This document shows, in pieces, positions 6,995 through 29,415 of a DNA stretch of 31,334 nt (its first letter is position 1; every line of letters begins with the position of its first letter). The position numbers and the translations under genes are program-made. Source of the DNA: a virus (Duplodnaviria; Caudoviricetes); the IMG/VR virus record IMGVR_UViG_3300010362_000071, positions 1 to 31,334 of that record, one strand, 5' to 3'. The notes beneath the pieces are model-generated. The model was not told the origin of the DNA, did no database searches, and saw nothing but the letters and a program-made list of their open reading frames with translations.

Positions 6995-9900
6995 ATGGGC
7001 GGCCAGTTCCTGGATGCGCTTCGTCGTGCCGCTGGCGGCGTCAGCTCCGCCGCGCAGTCCCCCATCGTCTCGGGCGCCGCCCAGATGCCGCTCCAGCTCG
7101 GCTCCACCCTGGCCCAGCTCCCACTCGCCTACTTCCAGAACTACCTCCAGAAGTTCCGCGCCCCGGGCATCGTGAACCAGATCAACGAGGCCAAGCTCGC
7201 CGACCTCCAGTCAACCGCCCTCCAGGACCCGGCCATCCGTGCCGCCATGCCCTACCGGCCCGACATCGCCCGCTTGATCGGCACGCGGGTCGAGCCGATC
7301 GCGGGCGGCCTCCCTCCTCCCGAGCGTGCACTCCCCGGCATGCGCTCTCTCTACCGCGCCGGCGTCGTCCGCACCGGCCAGCCCGGCCTCCCGATGGCGC
7401 TCCCTCCGCTCACCGAGACCACCGAGTCGCTCGCGCGTGAGAAGGCCCGAGCCGACATCACCCAGAGCTACGCCAGTGCTGAACTCTCTAGAGCCAAAGC
7501 CGGCCAGCTCACCACCAACAACCCGAACCCTCCCGACGGCCTCCCCCCCGACCAGTCCGCCTGGGTGAACACCCAGATTCGCGACAGCCTGACCGGCCGC
7601 ACCTGGGTCTGGGAGCTTCGCGTTGCCCCCGGTCGCCCCGGCCAGCAGGGCGCACCGGGACCGGGGCAGCAGGGAGCCGCTCCGGGCGCTCCTCCCGGGC
7701 GACGCATCTCGCTCGCCCCGGGTGGCGGCGGCGGCGGCGCGATCGCGGGCTTCTCCCCCGCCCAGAACGATCTCATGCGCTCGCCCATGTACGACGAGAC
7801 CGCCCGGCGCTACGGCTACATGCCGAACCTGCTCCGTGCGGTAAGCTGGCAGGAGTCTGGCTTCAATCCGAACATCGCCCCGCACCTGACCAAGCACGGC
7901 TGGGTCCGTGGCCTGAACCAGTTCCTCGATTCGACTGGCGCCCAGTACGGCATCGATGCCACCAACTGGCGTGAGCCGGCACTCCAGATCGAGGCCCTCG
8001 GCCAGCACTTGCGGAAGCTCGGTGCCAACTCCGCCAGCATGCAGTCGATCTACGACGCGCTCGTCAAGTACCACGGTGGCGGACCGCAGAGCGTGGATCA
8101 GCTCGGCGTGACGAGCGACGCCTACGCCAAGGCGGTGCTCCAGAAGTGGCAGCAGCTCGACGATGCTCAGGTCGGCTTTGTCGGCGGTGGTCCTCCCGGC
8201 ACCGAGCCGTCTGCCGGTCAGCAGCCCGCCGAGCCCGCTCCCACTCAGCAAGCGCAAGCTCCCGGCCAGCCCCCCGGCGCCCCACCCGCTCCCCGGATGC
8301 CGAGCTTCCAGGAGATCAACCCCGAGCCGCTACCGGCTGAGCCCGCTGGCGCACCTCCGACGACGACGACCACCCTCGCTCCCGCCGCCCCCGCCGGTGG
8401 CGGCCCGCAGCCCGAGCCTCCTCGCCTTGGTGGCACTCCATCACAGCAGCAGCCACCTCAGCTTGGCATGAGCGAGCCCGCCCCTGGCCAGCGCACCCAG
8501 GCCGACTGGGACATCTTCGGCCCCGCCCCTGAAGACCAGGCAACGCAAGGGAGCCCCTCTGGCGCCTTCCCCGAGCCTGGCCCTTCTCCCACCACTGGCC
8601 AGCCCACTCCCGTCGCCACAGCCGCCCCTGGACGCCAGCTGGCGGCCCTCCCGCCGCCGGAGCGTCGTCTCGGGTCGGTGAGCGGCGCCTTTCTCGGTCC
8701 CGCCGAGGCCGCTGCCGCTCCCCCTCCAGCTCCGCCACGGCCGCCTCCCGCTGCGCCCCCGTCGACGCTCGCCCCGAGCCAGCAGATCGGCCAGACCCTG
8801 GCCCCCCCGGAAGCGAACATCCCTGCCCCTGGCCCCGCTCCGATCCCTCAGGGTGTCGGCCCGACCCCGGTCGTCCCGGCCACGACCACCCCGGGCGCTC
8901 TGCCGCTCGCGCCGAGGCAGGCCGCTGCGGGCGGCGCCCCTGGTCAAGCTCCCCCCGGGGCGAGCGGAGCGCCTGGCGCCCCAGCACCCGGTGGCACGAT
9001 CCCGCCGGGCGAGCGCATCGTCGGCTCTATCCGTCCCGGCTTCGGCCTCGATTTGAACTCCCCCGATCTCGGTGTCGCGCAGGGCATTCAGCAGGGACAG
9101 CGCCGTCCCGGGTCGAGCGGTGTGGCGGGCACGCTGCCGGTCGTCGACACGGACCCCTCGCCCCTCTTCCCCGACACCAACACCCGCTACGTCACCATGC
9201 CGACGGGCGAGGTGAAGCTCAATCCGCAGGTCCCCGTCACTCCCGACGAGACGCTCATGATGGACGCCGTCGCCCACACGCCCGGTGCCTCCGAGTACGT
9301 GCGCCAGACCTACACGAGCCAGATCGGCCGCCGCTACCCCGACGCCGCCACCGCGCGCCAGAACGCCGTCCAGGACTTGAAGGTCCGCCGCGTGATGCAA
9401 GCCTACACCCAGGAACTCAACCAGGGCCGCATCACCTCGGCCAACAAGGTCGCGCAGGTGGCCCGTGCGCAGATCGCCAAGGACTTTCTCGCTACCTATC
9501 TCACCCAGGTGCGCCGCATGGACCCGCAGGGCAACATGGCCCCGGACTATAACCGCGATGGCAACCCCCGCATCGCGCTCGACGCCCTCTCCGACAACCC
9601 CGAGTGGATCGACTTCTCCCAGCAGCCCCTGACCGCCCCCTTCGGCCAGGGCGGTCCCGGCATCCCGCTCTACGTCCAGCACTTCCTCGGCATGGACCCG
9701 AGCTGGATGTCGATCCGCCAGATGGCGATCTACGGCGACGGTGCGGCGATCATCCTGATGGCGAATCTCGGCTCCGCGCAGAACGCGGTCCGCGCCCTCG
9801 GCGACGTCGGCAACCTGGCCGTCGCCGAGCAGGAGATGGTGATGCGCAACCTGATCCCGTCTCCTCGCGACAGCCGTGGCTTGGCACTCGGCAAGGTGCT

Positions 9901-13494: not shown

Positions 13495-13689
13495 CTAATC
13501 CACCTCCTCGTACAGATCAACGTCGCCATCGGCGCCGACGAAGCTGAAGTCGACTGGCCCCCGGCCCGCCACCTCCATCGTCACCGTGTCGGTGACTGCC
13601 GGCGTGCGCCCGCCCAGCTCCAGCTCCTGGACATGCATGGTGCCGTCGCGCTCAACCAGCCATCGCTCTCTTCTCTGCCTGCCAGACAT
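13495..13689 (-). CDS. Small hypothetical protein
   Basis: Fills the gap between polymerase and DUF3987 genes; start uncertain. Confidence 0.35.
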   Translation of the reverse strand: MSGRQRRERWLVERDGTMHVQELELGGRTPAVTDTVTMEVAGRGPVDFSFVGADGDVDLYEEVD

Positions 13690-16264
13690 CCTCGAACTCC
13701 TCCTGCTCGACGAGTTCGGCCTGCTTCCACTCGTGCATCCCGGCCCCCCAGCGCCACCCGAGCTTCATCCCGACGGGCATTTGAAGCTCCCACGGCCCAC
13801 CGACCCCCTGGTAGGTGCGTGGCGCTCGGAGCAGTCGGGTCGCCAGCTCTGCCAGCTCCCACAGCTCCGAGCACGGTCCATCGAGCACGATCGCGTCGTG
13901 TGCTTGCAGCACGATGCGGCTACGCATCCGTGCGCGCTTGATCGCCGACCAGACCGGCAGCCAGCCCTGCTGATTCAAGAGCACGCCCACCTCCGACTGC
14001 GGGCCGAAGGCGTAGGCCTGCTTGTAGTCCTCCTTGCCGAGGATGCGGCCCGTGAAGCGGAGGTGACGGCCCCAGCTGTTCTCAAGCCGCCGCGCCTCGA
14101 TCACCTGCTTTCTCACCCAGGCCTGCCACCTGGCGATGTAGGGCCTCGCTGCCATCACCTTGTCGATGATGTCCTGGCACTCCTCAGGGGCCAGCACCAC
14201 CTCGCCCTCGGTCTCCTTCACCAGCACTTCCGAGAACCGCACCCCCTCCATGCCGTAGTTGGTGGCGTGGCGGCCGCGCTTGCCGACGTTGTCGCGCTCG
14301 GCCTTGGTGACGTCCTCCATCCCCTTCCCGAGCACCTCCGACGCCATCAGCCGGTGCTGGTCCAGCTCGAGCGGTGGAGTTCTAGCTAGCTCTAGTGCTC
14401 GCTTGTCCCCGCTGCTGCCGTCGACGATGCGGCTCTCGGCCTGACTCAAGTCCAGCTCCACCAACATCCACCCCGGCTCGCTCGCCGTGAACATGGAGCG
14501 GATCGAGTGGAGCTGGTTCTGCAAGTTGGTGCCGACCCCGGTCGGTGGCGTCTGCGCCTTCGCCCGCCCGGTCACGGTGAGCGGCCGGAAGAGCGAGCGC
14601 ATGCGGCCGTCCTGGTCGAGCCGGGTCGGGGCCGTGAACTGCGCGCGCTTCTCCTGATGCCTGAACTGGAGGATCAAGTCGGTGACGACGGCGGCCTTCT
14701 TCGGGTAGCGCACGTGCATGCGGCGCAGCGCCACCTCGTCGGCGGTCGGCCGCCCACCCTTCTTGTAGGGCTTTATCTTTAAGTCTGTGTAGAAGTACTT
14801 AAGGATGGCAGGATTAGATAGTCCACCTTTAGGTTGGTTCTTAGCCTTGCTAGCCTTGCCGGACTTGAGGATGCGCGGCCCCGTCGTCAGCGGATAGCCG
14901 ACGGCCTCCGTCATGGCATGGCGCAGCCGCTCCAGCTCAGAGAGCGCCGCAGCATGGAGCCGTGCCCGCTCGGCGCCGTCGACCGTCATGCCGGTGAGCG
15001 AGAGGTCGAGGCTCGCCCACATGAGTTTGCGGTAGTGCCAGCGATACGTCGAGGCGAGCCCGTCCCGCTCCAGCCGATAGGCATAGACGTCGCACAGCTC
15101 GGCGGTGTGCCTGGCGTCCTTGCCGCAGTAGCGGAGAAACTGCTCCCAGTTGGCCGTCTTTCTCTTGTAGCCCCCCCTCGGCCCGACCTCGGTCTCCTTC
15201 GACTCCTCCTTCCAGAAGATGGTACGCAGATCACGGCTCGCGCAGTAGGCGAGGCTGTGCTGGTCTGCGGGGTCGAGCAGGTGATGCATCGCCAGCGTGT
15301 CCCACCTCCAGCGATGCACCGGCAGCTTGTGCCACCTGAGCAGAAAGGTGTCGAAGAGCCCGTTGTGAAAGGTCTTCACCAGGTCCGACGCGAGGAAGCG
15401 CGCCAGCCAGAACCAGCCCCACTTGATCGTGCCCCGTCCCGACGGATCGATCAGCGGAATGACGAGGCTCTCCGCCCCGCTCTGCGCGAACCCTGCACAG
15501 AGGAGCTGCGCCCCTGCCGTCTCCAGGTCCACGGCCAGGTCCAGCCCCGCGCGCTCTGCCGCCTGCAACCAGCCGGCGCACTGCTTCGGTGAGCTGGCGA
15601 CGAGATCGAGCCCCTCCTCGACCGGCGGACACCCCGCCGCCACCTCCTCGGCGATCCTCCTCCAGTCCCCGCGCCACGCTTCATAGCCCAGGTTGCCGTA
15701 CAAAAAACTGGCGGGATGCACCGTGGGAATCATCCGCACCGCTATGCTGGTGTTAGACTTGTACTCTAGAAGACTACCACGGTACTGGCCGATGCGCTTC
15801 GGCCAGACGATGCCGGTCCCCGGCCGCTCCCTCCAGCTCCCGGCCTTCTTGCCCGAAACGGCTCCAAAAATGGGAAGCGGCTCCCGGAGAAGTGTATTCA
15901 GGGCTAGATTGCCGGTCGGCACAATGACTCGCCCACGGGTATCCTCGGCCAGGAGCGCCTGAAGCCGGCGGTGGCAGTGCTCCTGCCACCACGCCACCTG
16001 CTTGGGGCTCAGCTCCTCCACGTTGTTCGAGGGAGGCCGCTCCTCGCAGACGTTCTCGATCCGCACGTCCTCGCGCTGGATGCCGAGCGGCGTCCAGCCC
16101 TCCTGCTGCTGGAGCCTGCCCGCCTGGCCGACGAACGGCTCCCCGTGGAACACCTCGTCCCGCCCGGGCGCCTCGCCCACCAGGATGATCCTGGCGTCGG
16201 TGGGGCCGACACCGCGCACCACCCGCGACCTCCCTCCGTGGAACGTCGGCATCAGCCCCACCAC
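13652..16264 (-). CDS. polA: Family A DNA polymerase fused to N-terminal family-4-like uracil-DNA glycosylase and 3'-5' exonuclease (SPO1-like architecture)
   Basis: UDG motifs VGEAPG, PFVGQAG, VHPASFL; ExoI DLET, ExoII HNGLFD, ExoIII YCGKD; Pol motif A DLSQAESR, B KRGRHATNYG, C AHDAIV; start may be ATG 16252. Confidence 0.93.
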   Translation of the reverse strand: MVGLMPTFHGGRSRVVRGVGPTDARIILVGEAPGRDEVFHGEPFVGQAGRLQQQEGWTPLGIQREDVRIENVCEERPPSNNVEELSPKQVAWWQEHCHRRLQALLAEDTRGRVIVPTGNLALNTLLREPLPIFGAVSGKKAGSWRERPGTGIVWPKRIGQYRGSLLEYKSNTSIAVRMIPTVHPASFLYGNLGYEAWRGDWRRIAEEVAAGCPPVEEGLDLVASSPKQCAGWLQAAERAGLDLAVDLETAGAQLLCAGFAQSGAESLVIPLIDPSGRGTIKWGWFWLARFLASDLVKTFHNGLFDTFLLRWHKLPVHRWRWDTLAMHHLLDPADQHSLAYCASRDLRTIFWKEESKETEVGPRGGYKRKTANWEQFLRYCGKDARHTAELCDVYAYRLERDGLASTYRWHYRKLMWASLDLSLTGMTVDGAERARLHAAALSELERLRHAMTEAVGYPLTTGPRILKSGKASKAKNQPKGGLSNPAILKYFYTDLKIKPYKKGGRPTADEVALRRMHVRYPKKAAVVTDLILQFRHQEKRAQFTAPTRLDQDGRMRSLFRPLTVTGRAKAQTPPTGVGTNLQNQLHSIRSMFTASEPGWMLVELDLSQAESRIVDGSSGDKRALELARTPPLELDQHRLMASEVLGKGMEDVTKAERDNVGKRGRHATNYGMEGVRFSEVLVKETEGEVVLAPEECQDIIDKVMAARPYIARWQAWVRKQVIEARRLENSWGRHLRFTGRILGKEDYKQAYAFGPQSEVGVLLNQQGWLPVWSAIKRARMRSRIVLQAHDAIVLDGPCSELWELAELATRLLRAPRTYQGVGGPWELQMPVGMKLGWRWGAGMHEWKQAELVEQEEFEDVWQAEKRAMAG

Positions 16265-17041: not shown

Positions 17042-17257
17042 CTAGCTCGCCTTCTTCGTCGTCGTCGTCATCTTCCAGCCCTTCTTCGCGAGCAGGTCGA
17101 TGATCGCTTCCGTCACCAGCCGACTGATCGGCAGGTTCTCCGTCACGGCATAGAGCTTCAGTTCGCGGTAGACCATTTGCGGCACGCGGGTCGCCAGCTG
17201 CACGACGCTTTCGCCCGTCGGGATCACCTGGACCTGCTGCGGCTTGCCTTTCCGCAT
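17042..17257 (-). CDS. Ribbon-helix-helix DNA-binding protein
   Basis: VQLATRVPQMVYRELKLYAVTENLPISRLVTEAIIDLL has the RHH beta-alpha-alpha pattern; GGGAGG RBS before ATG 17257. Confidence 0.8.
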   Translation of the reverse strand: MRKGKPQQVQVIPTGESVVQLATRVPQMVYRELKLYAVTENLPISRLVTEAIIDLLAKKGWKMTTTTKKAS

Positions 17258-18300: not shown

Positions 18301-19273
18301 CACTCGCTCCTCTGCTCACGGCCAGCGGCTCCCACGGCTCCACCCGAAACGCCGCCCGCAGCGCGTTCTTGTTCGTGTTGCGCCCCAGCCGACACCACTC
18401 CTTCATGTCGCAGAACGTGCACCCGTCATTGAACCGCCCCTGCATCGACACCTCGCTCACCCCGGGAGCCCCCTCGCGCTCGGCGAGTGCGAGGAGCATC
18501 TGATACTGCTCGACCAGCCGCAGTGCCGAGAGATGCCAGGCCGCCAGCTCGACCTCGCTTCTGGTGACGTAGACGTAGTCGTAGCTCGCATGCCTGACCG
18601 AGCACTCGGTGTACGGGACCCCATGCTCCCTGCACGTTTTGGACGATGTGTGCGGGTCGGGCAGCTCGATCACGTGCAAGACGACGCCCTCGACCTGGTG
18701 CGCGCTCGCCTGTCTGCCGATCCACACCTGCCCGCTCCACTGCGAACTCGTCTTCTGCTTCTCCTTCCACCACTCCGTGATGCGCTTGGTCGTCTTGTGA
18801 TCCATCGACCACTTCCCGCCCGCATCGCTTTTCCGCACCATGGCATCCACCCTGGCGACGTAGAGCACGCCGATGGCGAGCGGCGCCTGGATCGGTGCCT
18901 CCACGGCGCCCTCCACCACCCGGAAGGGGAAGTGCTCATCCAACTGATCCAGGTGCTGGTGAAAGATGGCCTCCACCCGCTCGGGGGCGAAGCGGGCATC
19001 GCTCCCGCCGAGCACGTCCTCGTCGTTCGCTTTCAAGTAGTGCTCGACGGCGCTCTCGTACTCGGCCGCCATGATCCGCACCGCCCTGTTCCTCTGCCGA
19101 TGCGTCATCCAGTGCTCCATGCCCGAGTGGATGGCGTGGCCGGCCTGGAGCGCCAGGCTCTCCGTCCTCGGTGCCAGTCCCAGGCAGAAGCGGAGGTAGG
19201 CATAGGTGTGGCACTTCGCCACCCCCGAGAGGATCGTGTTGTCGACGACCAGGTCAGGCGCCGTCGTCCGCAT
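18293..19273 (-). CDS. PD-(D/E)XK exonuclease (RecB/Cas4-like)
   Basis: GHAIHSGME, ARVDAMV and DHKTT catalytic motifs; N-terminal Cys plus C-terminal CTFCDMKEWC Fe-S-type ligands. Confidence 0.85.
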   Translation of the reverse strand: MRTTAPDLVVDNTILSGVAKCHTYAYLRFCLGLAPRTESLALQAGHAIHSGMEHWMTHRQRNRAVRIMAAEYESAVEHYLKANDEDVLGGSDARFAPERVEAIFHQHLDQLDEHFPFRVVEGAVEAPIQAPLAIGVLYVARVDAMVRKSDAGGKWSMDHKTTKRITEWWKEKQKTSSQWSGQVWIGRQASAHQVEGVVLHVIELPDPHTSSKTCREHGVPYTECSVRHASYDYVYVTRSEVELAAWHLSALRLVEQYQMLLALAEREGAPGVSEVSMQGRFNDGCTFCDMKEWCRLGRNTNKNALRAAFRVEPWEPLAVSRGASDG

Positions 19274-19427
19274 CGTCCCCTCCTCGTTTGGTGTCGGTCT
19301 CGGCGAGCGATTCGCCGAGCGCGTGCTGGTAGCCTGCCAGGAACGCGAGCCGGAGATTGTACTCGGTGTCCTTCAGGAACGGGCGCACCGCAGCACGCAT
19401 GGCGCGCTCCAGCTTCTGCTTGCTCAT
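19254..19427 (-). CDS. Small hypothetical protein (57 aa)
   Basis: ATG 19427 preceded by AGGAGGGACAAGC leader and a promoter; overlaps the nuclease start. Confidence 0.65.
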   Translation of the reverse strand: MSKQKLERAMRAAVRPFLKDTEYNLRLAFLAGYQHALGESLAETDTKRGGDDADDGA

Positions 19428-19460
19428 GTGCTTGTCCCTCCTACTACAGTGAGCTGCTAG

Positions 19461-19484
19461 ATCATAGCAGTGGTGAAATGTCAA
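19461..19484 (-). promoter_or_regulatory. Leftward sigma70-type promoter (extended -10)
   Basis: TGcTATGAT extended -10; TTGACA present but only 12 nt upstream. Confidence 0.55.
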
Positions 19485-21645: not shown

Positions 21646-21824
21646 GGCGTCAGCCCACTGTGATCCCGTACCGCTTCGAGGAATGCGCCCGCGTCAAAGC
21701 GTGGATCGAATCGCTGGAAGTATGCCAGGAAGGCTGCGAGCACCGTGCGTGCCTCTTCCGTTCCGGCGTACTGGCGCCGCTGATAGAGATACTCGGTTAC
21801 CCATTCGCCCTGCTCTCGTGTCAT
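21642..21824 (-). CDS. Small phage early protein (PRFD..F motif family)
   Basis: DPRFDAGAFLEA resembles the NPRFDxxRFxxA motif of a small phage protein family; ATGA coupling on both sides. Confidence 0.65.
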   Translation of the reverse strand: MTREQGEWVTEYLYQRRQYAGTEEARTVLAAFLAYFQRFDPRFDAGAFLEAVRDHSGLTP

Positions 21825-22114
21825 CGTTCGCCCTCGCGTCGAGCGTCGGCGCGAGCCTCCATCGCCGCGACGTAGGCATCCTCGGCCTGCTCCTCGGCCG
21901 CGTGGAAGAGCTGTGCCTCCAGCTCCGCCATGGCCTCGGGCGGGAGGTGGCCGAGCAGATTCAGCCCCGGCTGGCCCTTCTTCGTGAGCATGACGGCCTC
22001 CAGCTCACACCCTCCCGGATCCCCCGGGTCCCAGCCCTCGGGCGCCACCGGGAAGTCCACACTCCCGTGCACGGTGACTTCTAGCTCGATCGCCGTCGTG
22101 AACCTGACTGCCAT
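21821..22114 (-). CDS. Acidic hypothetical early protein
   Basis: First gene after a promoter, ACAAGGAGGGACAAGC leader. Confidence 0.75.
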   Translation of the reverse strand: MAVRFTTAIELEVTVHGSVDFPVAPEGWDPGDPGGCELEAVMLTKKGQPGLNLLGHLPPEAMAELEAQLFHAAEEQAEDAYVAAMEARADARREGER

Positions 22115-22139
22115 GCGCTTGTCCCTCCTTGTTGGTGCT

Positions 22140-22168
22140 ACCTTATAGCACGCTCAACCCGATGTCAA
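22140..22168 (-). promoter_or_regulatory. Leftward sigma70-type early promoter
   Basis: TTGACA-N17-TAAGGT; shares TTGACATCGGGT with the promoter at 23216-23243. Confidence 0.75.
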
Positions 22169-22446: not shown

Positions 22447-22613
22447 GGCTCCCCCCGCATGCGCCGCACCATCACGAGCACGCTCACCTGCCCGAGCACG
22501 AGGCACAGCTCCCACACCGCCCAGGCGCGGAGGTCGCCGTAGCGCCTCCAGGCTCGCTCATCCTCGGCCTCTGCCTCCAGGAGTCCCATCGGATCGAACC
22601 CATGCTTGCTCAT
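22443..22613 (-). CDS. Small hypothetical protein, possibly membrane-associated
   Basis: ATG 22613 in ATGA overlap with GAGG RBS; hydrophobic C-terminal half. Confidence 0.55.
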   Translation of the reverse strand: MSKHGFDPMGLLEAEAEDERAWRRYGDLRAWAVWELCLVLGQVSVLVMVRRMRGEP

Positions 22614-23164
22614 GGCGCCACCTCGGCCATCTTCTCGGTCTCGGCCATCTTCTCGGTGATGGCCTTCCGCACCTCCTCGGCCAGCTTCTTCCCTCCCAGC
22701 GCATGGGGCTCGATGGCCTCCATCAGGGCCGTCTGTGCCTCGGTCAGCTCCACCACCTTGACGCGCACCCGTGCTGCCAGGGCCTCGATGGCGACGCGCT
22801 CCTCCCCAGCCAGGGGCTTGTAGACACTGCTGCTCCAGTTGGAGACGCTGTCCTTGGCGCCCCCCTGCCACGTCACCAGGACGTCCCCAGTGCTCGCGTG
22901 GATGCCCCTCGCGTGGCCGTGGACGAGCTTGCCGTTCTCGGGGACGACGTAGGTGAAGGGGACGGCGACGCTGAGCTTGGCCTCCTTCACCTTCACCTTG
23001 AGCACGGCCCGCAGCTCGTCATCGGTGCTGGTCGGCCCTGCCACCATGTTCTCCCGGCTGGGCTCCTCTCCGTCTGCGTGGGCGTAGAAGGTGCCGTACT
23101 CGGTGACCGTGAACACGAGCCAGGTCTGGTCGATCTTCCGTCGCGTGTACTTCGTGAACGTCAT
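22610..23164 (-). CDS. Hypothetical early protein
   Basis: ATG 23164 preceded by ACAAGGAGGGACAAGCG; first gene after a promoter. Confidence 0.78.
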   Translation of the reverse strand: MTFTKYTRRKIDQTWLVFTVTEYGTFYAHADGEEPSRENMVAGPTSTDDELRAVLKVKVKEAKLSVAVPFTYVVPENGKLVHGHARGIHASTGDVLVTWQGGAKDSVSNWSSSVYKPLAGEERVAIEALAARVRVKVVELTEAQTALMEAIEPHALGGKKLAEEVRKAITEKMAETEKMAEVAP

Positions 23165-23215
23165 CGCTTGTCCCTCCTTGTCTGTCCTAGCTTGTTGTTC
23201 TTGCTTGCCTGCCAT

Positions 23216-23243
23216 AACTTAGCACACTAGCACCCGATGTCAA
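23216..23243 (-). promoter_or_regulatory. Leftward sigma70-type early promoter
   Basis: TTGACA-N16-TAAGTT with extended -10 TG. Confidence 0.72.
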
Positions 23244-23643: not shown

Positions 23644-23751
23644 CCATTCGCCTCCTTAGCGGCTATTCTAAACATAGCCACAGTGTTTCTGCCAGGGTTA
23701 AACGGAAAAAGCCTTACGGGTCAAGGCTTTTCCTCGAAAGCCTCTGACCCC

Positions 23752-24089
<338 letters not shown>

Positions 24090-24241
24090 TGGGAAATTGA
24101 GGTGGTGGCTGAAAATCCAAGAAATCGGCTACTTAGCGAGGATAAAATGGGGTAAAGTTAAGGGATGTTCCTATATTTGCGATTTCTAGCCGAAATCATC
24201 TCCAATACCCCAAATTGCGGCCACTTTTCCCCCCTATACGT

Positions 24242-24383
24242 GATCCTGAGCTGAAAACCCTTTCGCGTGCGTGATCCTGAGCTTCATTTCTTTCTAGCAG
24301 CCGGAGTGTGGCCGGAGAACGCCCCGCGCGATCCTGAGCTTCGCCGCGCTCGCGCGCGCGATCCTGAGCGCCTGATCCTGAGC
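24242..24383 (+). repeat. Five direct repeats of GATCCTGAGC
   Basis: Copies start at 24242, 24273, 24330, 24360 and 24374. Confidence 0.92.
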
Positions 24384-24527
24384 TGGGGGAGCCCGCCCGA
24401 GGGGCCGGGCGCCTGCCAGCACCTCCAGGGAGCGCGCCCCGCGCGTCGCGCGCGCCTGCGCGCCGCGTGCGCGCGTTCCGTCTCTGCGCCGCGACGGCGC
24501 CGGCCGCCGGGCCTGCCAGGCCCTAGC

Positions 24528-26871: not shown

Positions 26872-27570
26872 ATGGCCTGGAGCTATCTCGGCAGCACCGT
26901 GGCAGACGGTGACGTCACCTTGGAGCCACTTCCCCCGCCCGCTGGCGGCTTAGCAGGCTCCGACTGGGAGATTCTCGCCCTCTCCCTGGAGGGCCTCCAC
27001 GCTCCGGCCATAGGAGAACGCCTCGGCCTGCCCGTGGCCGCCGTGCTCCGCATCACGGGAAGCGCCGACTTCCGCGACCAGGCCGCACGCATCGAGAAGG
27101 CCCTGCGCGCGAAGATCACCCGCGCCGGGGACTACGAGCCGCTCACCGCAGCACGGGCAGAGGCGCCGAAGGCCATGGCGAGGATGATCCAGCAGAGCCG
27201 GGTGGAGCGTGATCCGAGGGTCAGGCTGGCGGCCCATCAGGCGATCCTCAAGTATGCGGGGGTCGAGCCGGCGAGAAAGCTGGAGGTCACCACCCCCGAC
27301 CGCATCCTGGAGCAGATGACCCCCGACGAGCTGGCGTTGTTTGCGGCAAAGCGGCTGTGGCCAGCCCGCTTCAGGGACACGCTCCGCGCCTTCCTGCCCC
27401 CCGCTATCGCGGATGGCTCCGGCCTTCGGCCCGCTCGCCTCCCCACAGACACGACCGTCGACATCACGCCCGAGCCAGCAACGAACGGCACCCCCATCTC
27501 CACCGCACCACCAGCCGACCTCCCCCCTGCCAGCCGCCCAGGAGCTGACTCTCCAAAGACCGGGAGTTGA
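26872..27570 (+). CDS. Putative terminase small subunit
   Basis: N-terminal HTH (APAIGERLGLPVAAVLRI), RVRLAAHQAILKYAG helix typical of TerS, upstream of TerL. Confidence 0.62.
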   Translation: MAWSYLGSTVADGDVTLEPLPPPAGGLAGSDWEILALSLEGLHAPAIGERLGLPVAAVLRITGSADFRDQAARIEKALRAKITRAGDYEPLTAARAEAPKAMARMIQQSRVERDPRVRLAAHQAILKYAGVEPARKLEVTTPDRILEQMTPDELALFAAKRLWPARFRDTLRAFLPPAIADGSGLRPARLPTDTTVDITPEPATNGTPISTAPPADLPPASRPGADSPKTGS

Positions 27571-27595
27571 CAGGCCATCTAGCAGCGAGTAAGCC
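27567..27595 (+). promoter_or_regulatory. Candidate rightward promoter for the intergenic RNA
   Basis: TTGACA-N17-TAAGCC; -10 resembles the TAAGGT/TAAGTT boxes of the early promoters but lacks the final T. Confidence 0.45.
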
Positions 27596-27601
27596 TTGCT
27601 C

Positions 27602-27771
27602 CGCCATCACCGTCTCCACCGTCGCCCGCACCGCGACGGCCCCACACGGGCATCGGGAGGTCACTGGCCGGTTTGGGAGCTTGTCCCTCCTTGTCGGCCA
27701 GGGCCTCTCAGCCCCCGGCTCGGAGCTGCCGCTTCGCGGACGGCTTGGGGCTGAAGCCCCCTCGCCTTTCT
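27602..27771 (+). ncRNA. Candidate structured small RNA with anti-RBS seed
   Basis: Non-coding terS-terL gap tiled by hairpins (27619-27639; 27657-27707; 27708-27754); loop of the central hairpin carries GCTTGTCCCTCCTTGT, antisense to early-gene leaders. Confidence 0.5.
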
Positions 27772-27787
27772 GCTATAGGCCCTGGCC

Positions 27788-28588
27788 ATGCCGAGGAGGC
27801 CAACACGGTCCCCGGGGCATCTGGTCGACACGCACACCCCGCTCCTCGCCCCTGACACCGGCGGCGACCCCTTCCGGCTCGACCTCCCCGAGTCGGAGGA
27901 GCTACAGCTCGCCGCAAAGGCTAGGCTACGTAGCTTACAAAGGGAACATTCAGAAAGCTACCGAGATAAGCCCTACCGCTTCCTGGTCGAGTGCGTCTGG
28001 ACGCTCGACCAGGCGACCCAGCAAGTGCGCCGCTTTCCCGACTACGACGACCCCTCCCCGACCTGCACGTGTCGGCCCGGGGGCTGCAAGAACTTCGTCG
28101 ACCATCTCGTCGCGAGGTGGCTCCATGAGAAGCGGTTTCTGGTTCCGAAGAGCAGACGGGTGCTGGTCAGCTGGACGATGGTGGCGCTGCACTGCTGGCT
28201 CGCCCGCTTCTTCCCCGGCACCACGGTGGCGTTTGTCAGTCGCAAGCAGGGGCTCAATGACTCTGAGGGGGCCGCCGAGCTGGTCCGGCGCGTCAAGTTC
28301 ATCGAGGAGCACCTTCCCCTCGATCTGGAGCCTCTTCCCTTCCAATACAACTTCGCAAGGCTAAAGTACCCATCTATTGGCTCAGAAATCATTGGAGTTG
28401 CACAGGGAGCTGACCAGCTCCGCCAATATACACTAACAGCTATATTTGCAGATGAGATGGCCTTCTGGGAGCTAGCCGCCGACACCTACTCGGCAAGCAT
28501 CCCCACCCTGGAAGGTGGCGGCCGCTTCACGGGCGTCTCCTCCGCCAACCCCGGCTTCTTCAAACAAGCCGTCTTCGATAGCCTCTGA
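27788..28588 (+). CDS. terL: Terminase large subunit, ATPase domain only
   Basis: PKSRRVLVSW Walker A region, LRQYT...IFADEMAF Walker B, VSSA coupling motif; stop about 12 codons after motif III with no nuclease domain. Confidence 0.85.
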   Translation: MPRRPTRSPGHLVDTHTPLLAPDTGGDPFRLDLPESEELQLAAKARLRSLQREHSESYRDKPYRFLVECVWTLDQATQQVRRFPDYDDPSPTCTCRPGGCKNFVDHLVARWLHEKRFLVPKSRRVLVSWTMVALHCWLARFFPGTTVAFVSRKQGLNDSEGAAELVRRVKFIEEHLPLDLEPLPFQYNFARLKYPSIGSEIIGVAQGADQLRQYTLTAIFADEMAFWELAADTYSASIPTLEGGGRFTGVSSANPGFFKQAVFDSL

Positions 28589-29328: not shown

Positions 29329-29415
29329 AGGAGGTCCGATGGAGAGCGACTGCTCGGGACTGCGGCAGACCTTGTCCCTCGATCGATCTCTAGCTGCCCT
29401 GCGATGGAGTGTCTG

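Follow-up and report, generated by a model that had tools for sequence, protein, structure and literature searches.

A candidate antisense RNA to shared early leaders in the terminase gap of an uncultured soil phage family

Our analysis points to a small structured RNA, encoded between the two terminase genes of an uncultured phage, that would act as an antisense shut-off of several early operons, most likely at the early-to-late transition; we give this reading a probability of about 0.68. The DNA analysed (the window) is a partial phage contig of 31,334 bases with 67% G+C, complete to 70% by its record's own estimate, and it belongs to a family of uncultured soil phages. An initial annotation of this DNA had suggested a trans-acting antisense RNA in the gap between terS and terL, which might also gate terL. 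The first suggestion is upheld by a conserved structure on the + strand, a predicted promoter of its own and a loop that matches the early leaders and changes with them, while the gating of terL found no support. One RNA that addresses several early operons through a private spacer tag, with its anti-Shine-Dalgarno (anti-SD) half hidden, would be a compact way of retiming translation without a protein regulator. The phage antisense RNAs treated in the available part of a review act on one gene each and mostly in lysogeny decisions (PMC12197685), whereas the gap RNA apparently addresses several operons. No description of an RNA antisense to a shared early leader was found in the literature searched, which was mostly open-access text.

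The terminase gap and its predicted promoter

Virion genes lie on the + strand of the window; they are followed by a replication and early arm on the − strand, with primase, DNA polymerase A, SSB, Arc-like RHH, Sak4 and exonuclease genes, and then by a pair of AAA ATPase genes, terS and terL on the + strand. One DNA sequencing run, possibly the source of the contig, confirmed its assembly at the DNA level only, and among the sequencing runs listed none of RNA carried it. A contig search found no close prophage in genome contigs, the terminase had no cultured-phage relative among 50,697 phage records, no related locus was recovered with the AAA ATPase as bait, and an atlas search gave no family for terS. 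A 30-sequence profile of the terminase ATPase (27788-28588) matches T4 gp17 (E=3.9e-8). The gap between the two terminase genes measures 217 nt (27571-27787), as previously annotated, and holds or adjoins the following features.

26872..27570, + strand: terminase small subunit, a weak match (phrog_2538, E=0.004; down to 2.5e-5 in four relatives)
27567..27572, + strand: −35 hexamer TTGACA of the predicted RNA promoter, found upstream of 11 of the 12 covariance-model matches
27590..27595, + strand: −10-like TAAGCC at 17-nt spacing, without the last T (homologue comparison)
27603..27611, + strand: conserved 5' motif GCCATCACC, the predicted RNA start (CCATC(A/G)C across relatives)
27619..27639, + strand: small 5' hairpin, lineage-specific, absent or different in several homologues
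27650..27714, + strand: core long irregular hairpin presenting the seed (z-score, model R3, arm-swap test, pair counts)
27675..27691, + strand: apical hairpin with stem GGGAG/CUCCU and loop CUUGUCC, which starts with a YUNR motif (fold)
27679..27695, + strand: seed, antisense to the common early leader (pairing)
27747..27760, + strand: 3' hairpin GGGGC-UGAA-GCCCC, a possible 3' boundary, with no conserved U tail
27771..27779, + strand: extended −10-like TGCTATAGG just ahead of the terL ATG, possibly a separate leaderless promoter
27788..28588, + strand: terminase large subunit, ATPase domain only, 266 aa (profile and PHROG terL)

The promoter described in the initial annotation, TTGACA-N17-TAAGCC, is present at 27567-27595. 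Its −35 hexamer overlaps the terS stop in the window, not in all relatives, and in the twelfth covariance-model match (L062) the −35 region is cut off by the contig end. Among 11 homologues, the −10 has TA at 17-nt spacing in 9 and the last T in 1, and it is because this T is missing that a consensus promoter scan omits 27567-27595. The CCATC(A/G)C start occurs in 10 of the 12 seed-bearing elements and also in the seedless L033 and L038. The −35 and the spacing are the conserved parts of the promoter, its −10 is weak, and no terminator is conserved among the relatives.

For the 3' part, mutually exclusive folds had been proposed. The 8-nt pairing of 27708-27715 with 27747-27754 does exist; neither it nor a U-tailed terminator recurs in relatives. 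The promoter and hairpin of L028/L029 are inverted together relative to terL, with the seed staying on the promoter strand, and in several relatives terL has a promoter-like site of its own (TGCTA at 5-8 nt spacing ahead of ATG is also present in L026, L054 and L058), which speaks against the gating of terL by the RNA. Because of the L029 inversion, the separate promoter-like sites ahead of terL and the lack of a conserved U-tailed terminator, the RNA unit is regarded as separable from terL.

Some further elements were noted around these genes. A conserved GCGTGTAAACGC, readable as a GNRA-capped hairpin or as a DNA palindrome, lies ahead of terL, 83-184 nt past the seed, in L030, L031, L032, L034 and L036, and C(UUCG)G hairpins are found downstream of the seed in L034, L054, L058 and L069. 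The terL gene is split, with a stand-alone ATPase of ~250-270 aa family-wide; in L033, a separate gene several kb downstream of the ATPase (8035-8889) matches the C-terminal, nuclease-like part of terL. Elsewhere in the window, 13652-16264 codes for a family A DNA polymerase with a fused N-terminal uracil-DNA glycosylase-like domain, and an AT-rich non-coding stretch (23700-24400) separates the divergent arms. This stretch contains a 33-bp inverted repeat (23748-23780/24061-24093), a CTA tandem run near 23945-23997 and five GATCCTGAGC repeats (24238-24386), and is likely a replication origin or genome end.

Conservation and fold of the hairpin

The relatives compared were loci encoding relatives of the terminase ATPase. 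Their units consist of a TTGACA promoter, a GCCATCAC start, a long G·U-rich hairpin and a seed loop, with the seed core 82-158 bases further on, past the CCATC(A/G)C start; the unit occurs once per genome, in 12 distinct elements, in each case on the strand of the promoter. The first extraction of these units required TTGACA, so the link between promoter and hairpin is not demonstrable from that set. A covariance model seeded with the L054/L058 hairpin alone, holding no promoter information, picked up, at E<0.02 and on the right strand, the window together with eight more homologous loci. The refined model R3 gave 12 matches in 77 sources, one per genome and 11 of them distinct, including L031 and L034, which were outside its training set; the twelfth distinct element, L069, was missed by R3 and found by motif.

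On the TerL tree, L033 and L038 form a sister clade; they retain the promoter, the 5' motif and the long hairpin with a different, 6-nt loop (L033 2187-2310, L038 2146-2265), and may possibly carry the same RNA with another target tag; their records do not cover the early region, and their leaders thus fall outside the loop-leader comparison given below. Among the best 8 matches per locus in distant relatives (43-56% identity), no clear repeated match pointed to other seed-leader pairs near terL.

The 13-bp stem reported previously (27657-27670 with 27695-27707) is real, with one bulge and one U·G pair. The open 16-nt loop that it was said to enclose is wrong: GGGAG (27675-27679) pairs with CUCCU (27687-27691), only the 7-nt loop at 27680-27686 is exposed, and in the predicted fold this 5-bp apical stem hides the anti-SD half of the seed. 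All 12 distinct elements are predicted to form a long hairpin tipped by the seed, the apical stem having 4-6 bp and the loop 6-8 nt. The apical-stem variants GAAG/CUUC, GGAG/CUUC and GGGG/CUCC retain pairing on the promoter strand, and a YUNR motif opens the loop in 9 of the 12 elements.

The core at 27650-27714 folds with z=−3.1 on the + strand and z=−1.3 on the − strand, and whole-RNA z-scores favoured the promoter strand in 8 of 12 rows, with a tie in 1 and the opposite in 3. When arms were swapped between elements, L054 and L058 being treated as interchangeable, in 10 of 11 elements the 5' arm had its best partner in the 3' arm of the same element (mean −35.6 kcal/mol for own and −22.3 kcal/mol for swapped arms). 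In 10 of the 11, at most 4 of 300 shuffles did as well as the own arms, the exception being L069 (61 of 300). The promoter strand also gave the stronger arm duplex in 10 of 11, and it has 30 G·U pairs where the other strand has 6. In a structure-fitted alignment, which is biased to structure by construction, 96.7% of cells pair and both sides have changed at 19 of 23 pairs, far above shuffled and slid controls. On the evidence of these sequences, the gap holds a conserved, strand-specific RNA element. RNAalifold gave no consensus pair on a plain MAFFT alignment (A2) because the hairpin arms were out of register in it, and the model derived from that alignment (R1), being sequence-only, was set aside.

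Tagged early leaders

The 16-mer of the seed occurs exactly at 22117, 23166 and 27679 and with 2 mismatches at 19430. These 4 matches in the window compare with 0.30 expected, none of 100 shuffles reached 4, and an exact copy within the 217-nt gap has an order-2 Markov expectation of 6e-8; a chance origin of the copies is excluded. An RNA from the gap would pair perfectly with three minus-strand leaders over 17, 16 and 13 nt, as had been claimed. The three leader copies stand 1-2 bases ahead of an ATG, and on the minus-strand side of the gap copy no start codon follows, also in agreement with the initial annotation. The leaders and their promoters are listed here.

23166..23182, − strand: target leader 1, 17 nt, of gene 22610-23164 (pairing; rank 2 of 221)
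22117..22132, − strand: target leader 2, 16 nt, of gene 21821-22114 (pairing; rank 1 of 221)
19430..19442, − strand: target leader 3, 13 nt, of gene 19254-19427 (pairing; rank 3 of 221)
23210..23243, − strand: early promoter, TTGACA and a TGCTA-N5-TAGCA-type repeat with 1 mismatch, over the −10
22136..22168, − strand: early promoter, TTGACA and a perfect TGCTA-N5-TAGCA repeat
19455..19484, − strand: early promoter, TTGACA and a perfect TGCTA-N5-TAGCA repeat; short spacing, an extended −10 reading being likely

The gene at 19254-19427 is the first before a run of exonuclease, Sak4, RHH, SSB, DNA polymerase and primase genes, and no antirepressor match was found among the target genes. Within the window, the TGCTA-N5-TAGCA inverted repeat (at most 1 mismatch) is present only at the three target promoters, and the corresponding early promoters of L029, L031, L036 and L102 carry a related GCTACCATGGTTAG motif. 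These operator-like repeats lie at 19455-19469, 22136-22150 and 23210-23224, and the Arc-like RHH gene at 17042-17257 encodes a candidate binder. The window has five TTGACA hexamers, three of them ahead of target genes and a fourth, on the + strand, ahead of the gap; 5 seen against 3.0 expected is no enrichment, and their placement alone is informative. The early promoters mostly have a TAnnnT −10 and the shared repeat in the spacer, whereas the RNA promoter mostly lacks the last T, a difference that would fit delayed, activator-dependent firing of the RNA.

Two observations outside these leaders can be added. A partial seed copy, TTGTCCCTC, lies at window positions 29367-29378, in the spacer ahead of an Ala/Gly-rich gene. 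Viral contigs with an exact, single-copy 16-mer (25 loci) were tried as relatives and rejected, as model R3 found the hairpin in 0 of 25.

A calculation that includes the opening costs of both RNAs placed the three window leaders at ranks 1-3 of 221 SD-bearing starts, a ranking that is partly circular because the seed was defined by complementarity. Their values run from −14.5 to −20.5 kcal/mol, the next start has −9.6 and the median is +0.9. By the same calculation, the two tagged leaders of the complete relative G001 rank 1-2 of 261, and tagged starts make up 7 of the top 9 of 290 in the complete relative G002, where two of them are alternative starts of one leader and another tagged leader ranks 15. 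The tagged leaders of L031 rank 2-3 of 70, and in L029 one leader is first of 39 and the other falls outside the spacing filter. As modelled, the ranking shows selectivity of the seed over ordinary SD sites. Co-folding ranked two window leaders 1 and 5 and left the third outside the top 14, in which no target of G001 or G002 appeared either; it was replaced by the opening-cost calculation because it cannot hold the outer stem closed during loop pairing.

Comparison of loops with leaders was based on 26 tagged start sites, from which 19, early or promoter-proximal and belonging to 7 genome groups, were kept. The 7 dropped sites came from a genome without the seed or from regions that are late or coding, and one of them has A after GGGAC in an A-loop genome. 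Opposite the 19 early leaders, the variable loop base gives 16 Watson-Crick pairs, 1 G·U pair and 2 mismatches, and in none does the leader carry the other group's base. Genomes with CUUGUCC or UUGUCC loops (the window, L026/27, L029) have leaders with GGGAC-A (5) or -G (1, the wobble), and those with CUAGUCC loops (L030/63, L031, L034, L036) have GGGAC-U (11) or a mismatch (2). On the TerL tree, from which L034 was dropped (wrong frame) and where L062 is unlabelled, 2-3 switches of this base are needed, which are few independent events. The co-variation of seed and leaders that the initial annotation had asked about is thus borne out at the variable base and not along the whole seed, since only 10 of the 19 leaders have their longest run, ties included, with the seed of their own genome. 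In the genomes compared, co-evolution of loop and leader appears clear at one position only and loose beyond it.

Proposed role, alternatives and known systems

From the sequence, its conservation, the predicted fold, the complementarity and the co-change of one loop base, we infer the transcription, pairing order, repression and timing of the gap RNA as follows. The gap would encode a structured RNA of ~150-190 nt. A sigma-70-type promoter of its own, where the packaging/virion region begins, would drive its synthesis, and the product would be a free sRNA or else the 5' segment of a late transcript. The long stem of this RNA would hold up the small apical hairpin, whose 6-8-nt loop CU(U/A)GUCC would make first contact by pairing with GGAC(A/U)AG, the putative private spacer that separates the Shine-Dalgarno from the start codon in promoter-proximal early genes. 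Next, the weak apical stem of 5 bp would open and pairing would spread over the Shine-Dalgarno to 13-17 bp. The resulting duplex would block ribosome loading on several early operons simultaneously, and the sequestered anti-SD half would spare ordinary late and host mRNAs. Early translation would in this way most likely be shut down at the early-to-late transition, and DNA-level control via the inverted repeats in the tagged early promoters may act alongside the RNA.

The initial annotation had offered either an early-to-late switch or immunity as the role of the RNA. For immunity, superinfection exclusion or carrier-state upkeep, a resident genome would make the same antisense RNA constantly and silence the early genes of itself or of incoming kin, with c4 of P1/P7 as the model and the loop variants as immunity groups. 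The joint switching of loop and leaders between relatives agrees with such a job, constitutive expression is conceivable from a host-type promoter, there are operator-like repeats and an Arc-like RHH gene, and c4 provides a precedent (described in part of PMC12197685). However, no tyrosine integrase, serine recombinase/resolvase or ParA was found in the two complete relatives (G001 and G002), where a single sub-threshold HTH_3 match was seen, and therefore a lytic timing role is preferred. In addition, the unit sits at the head of the packaging region, and cross-pairing between genomes still reaches 8-15 bp, poor for exclusive groups. We consider a role in immunity improbable.

A little less probable still is a reading in which the leader tag serves initiation, as a strong or protein-read signal, and the hairpin mainly works in cis as a late leader or acts as a general anti-SD RNA on host mRNAs, with the match to phage leaders being secondary. 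The seed contains CCUCCUU, which resembles the 3' end of 16S rRNA, and L033 and L038 have a hairpin with another loop at the corresponding place. The start-associated sequences (SAS) of Cluster K phages, discussed below, are kept at 10-17 copies where no antisense loop exists. Yet it is the non-SD spacer that the exposed loop bases would pair with, the anti-SD half being sequestered, binding at other SD-bearing starts is much weaker (median about +1 kcal/mol), and the unit is inverted relative to terL in L029.

Very little weight falls on the remaining two alternatives. The pRNA of phi29 is the analogy for a structural RNA of the packaging motor, and the position between terS and an ATPase-only terminase gene, in a split terminase, would suit one here; but there is no Rfam match, L033 has a separate terL nuclease-like gene, and the 13-17-nt leader match and its co-change would be left unexplained. 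That the 16-mer is a dsDNA operator or the leftover leader of a decayed minus-strand gene is unlikely as well: its four window copies are identical or nearly so as DNA, but the reversed copy sits at the hairpin tip in 12 of 12 elements with the arms rewritten, stem changes are of G·U type on the promoter strand, and the forward copies stand at RBS distance from a start codon while the reversed copy has neither a start codon nor a minus-strand promoter.

The proposed antisense shut-off of early operons by the gap RNA can be compared with known systems. The Rfam search called for by the initial annotation returned 0 matches at gathering score for the window; at E<=1 there were also 0 in four Cluster K loci and five homologous loci, and E<=10 yielded just one 16-bit miRNA chance match. 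The CI RNA of P4 is a phage antisense RNA of the c4 type. The c4 RNA of P1/P7 is described, in the available part of PMC12197685, as a phage-encoded, trans-acting and structure-dependent RNA whose loop bases block translation at a ribosome-binding site. The gap RNA would work like c4, since it is phage-encoded, trans-acting in our model and has complementary loop bases opposite ribosome-binding sites, and it is not a member of the Rfam C4 family. Unlike c4, it has one apical loop on a long rod and not the c4 fold, its targets are several separate early operons where c4 has the ant mRNA, and its phages are apparently non-temperate. The sar RNA of P22 and OOP and aQ of lambda set developmental timing via phage mRNA (same part of PMC12197685); they act on one gene each, mostly from that gene's opposite strand, whereas the gap RNA lies 4-8 kb from several targets. 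YUNR motifs, according to sections of PMC6562991, accelerate antisense pairing in certain systems but have no such effect in others. The same sections cover hok/Sok and pIP501 RNAII/III, which share a YUNR recognition-loop motif with the gap RNA but are cis-encoded pairs with long complementarity; the U-turn in the gap RNA is putative.

By analogy of layout, the closest system would be the SAS/ESAS of Cluster K mycobacteriophages. In passages of PMC3203893, the SAS is a 13-bp SD-containing tag with upstream inverted repeats and a single opposite-orientation copy in four phages, its function being left between RNA and protein binding; in passages of PMC11373665, late transcription of Adephagia starts between gene 92 and gene 93, with the SAS role still called unknown. 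Like the soil-clade tag, the SAS/ESAS of Cluster K and of Cluster EF Microbacterium phages contain the SD, are conserved beyond 16S pairing before non-structural genes and have a promoter with an inverted repeat upstream of the tagged genes, and Anaya, Adephagia, Angelica and CrimD have one reversed SAS copy without a gene, as in the window gap (parts of PMC3203893, PMC7302621 and PMC11373665). In the soil clade, an SD-containing repeat stands before start codons at the 3 window leaders and at 19 leaders across 7 genome groups. The tag sequence is nevertheless different and does not match the Cluster K 13-bp consensus, the phages are unrelated, tagged genes number 2-7 in the soil clade and 10-19 in SAS phages, and the Cluster K loop is fully open with 10-11 nt, whereas the soil-clade loop has 6-8 nt above an apical stem. 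The same parts of these three papers do not propose the reversed copy as an RNA.

In Adephagia and Anaya we located the reversed SAS within the gene 92-93 gap, where a long hairpin of the late strand (z −2.1 to −4.9) carries it in its 10-nt loop. Among 14 Cluster K late leaders (10 among the 30 matches listed of 168 BLAST records and four taken by name), the antisense loop is exact in 6 and absent in 5, and 3 have a degenerate pyrimidine loop; phages with no antisense loop in the late leader still carry forward SAS copies. For most K1-type phages the parallel is real, but the upkeep of SAS does not depend on it. In DarthP, Shandong1 and Tierra, the SAS is unchanged and does not follow the altered loop, and AnnaSerena showed no reversed SAS copy at 1 mismatch. 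We tentatively suggest, at somewhat less than even odds, that SAS could be address labels for a single loop RNA made from the late promoter, which would act as a whole-regulon early-to-late switch of independent origins, with the soil family and Cluster K1 as two examples. This model would give a concrete answer to the function of SAS, left open in papers from 2011 to 2024. With their reversed SAS in a hairpin loop at the start of late transcription, Adephagia and Anaya make the idea testable in a cultured phage of M. smegmatis mc2 155.

The Cluster K late leader (L112 1185-1375, the Adephagia gap 92-93; L113-L125) is itself a conserved RNA of several hairpins, for which the four loci scanned gave no Rfam match; in 6 of the 14 phages the anti-SAS loop is found on its second long hairpin. 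The 5' motif of the soil-clade RNA has a passing likeness to the starts of these late leaders. A SprT-like gene bears the leader tag in three soil-clade relatives (L102 12836-13570, L036 5219-5884 and L029 1398-2027, all weak Pfam matches), and the SprT gene 75 of Adephagia also has an ESAS promoter, as described in part of PMC11373665.
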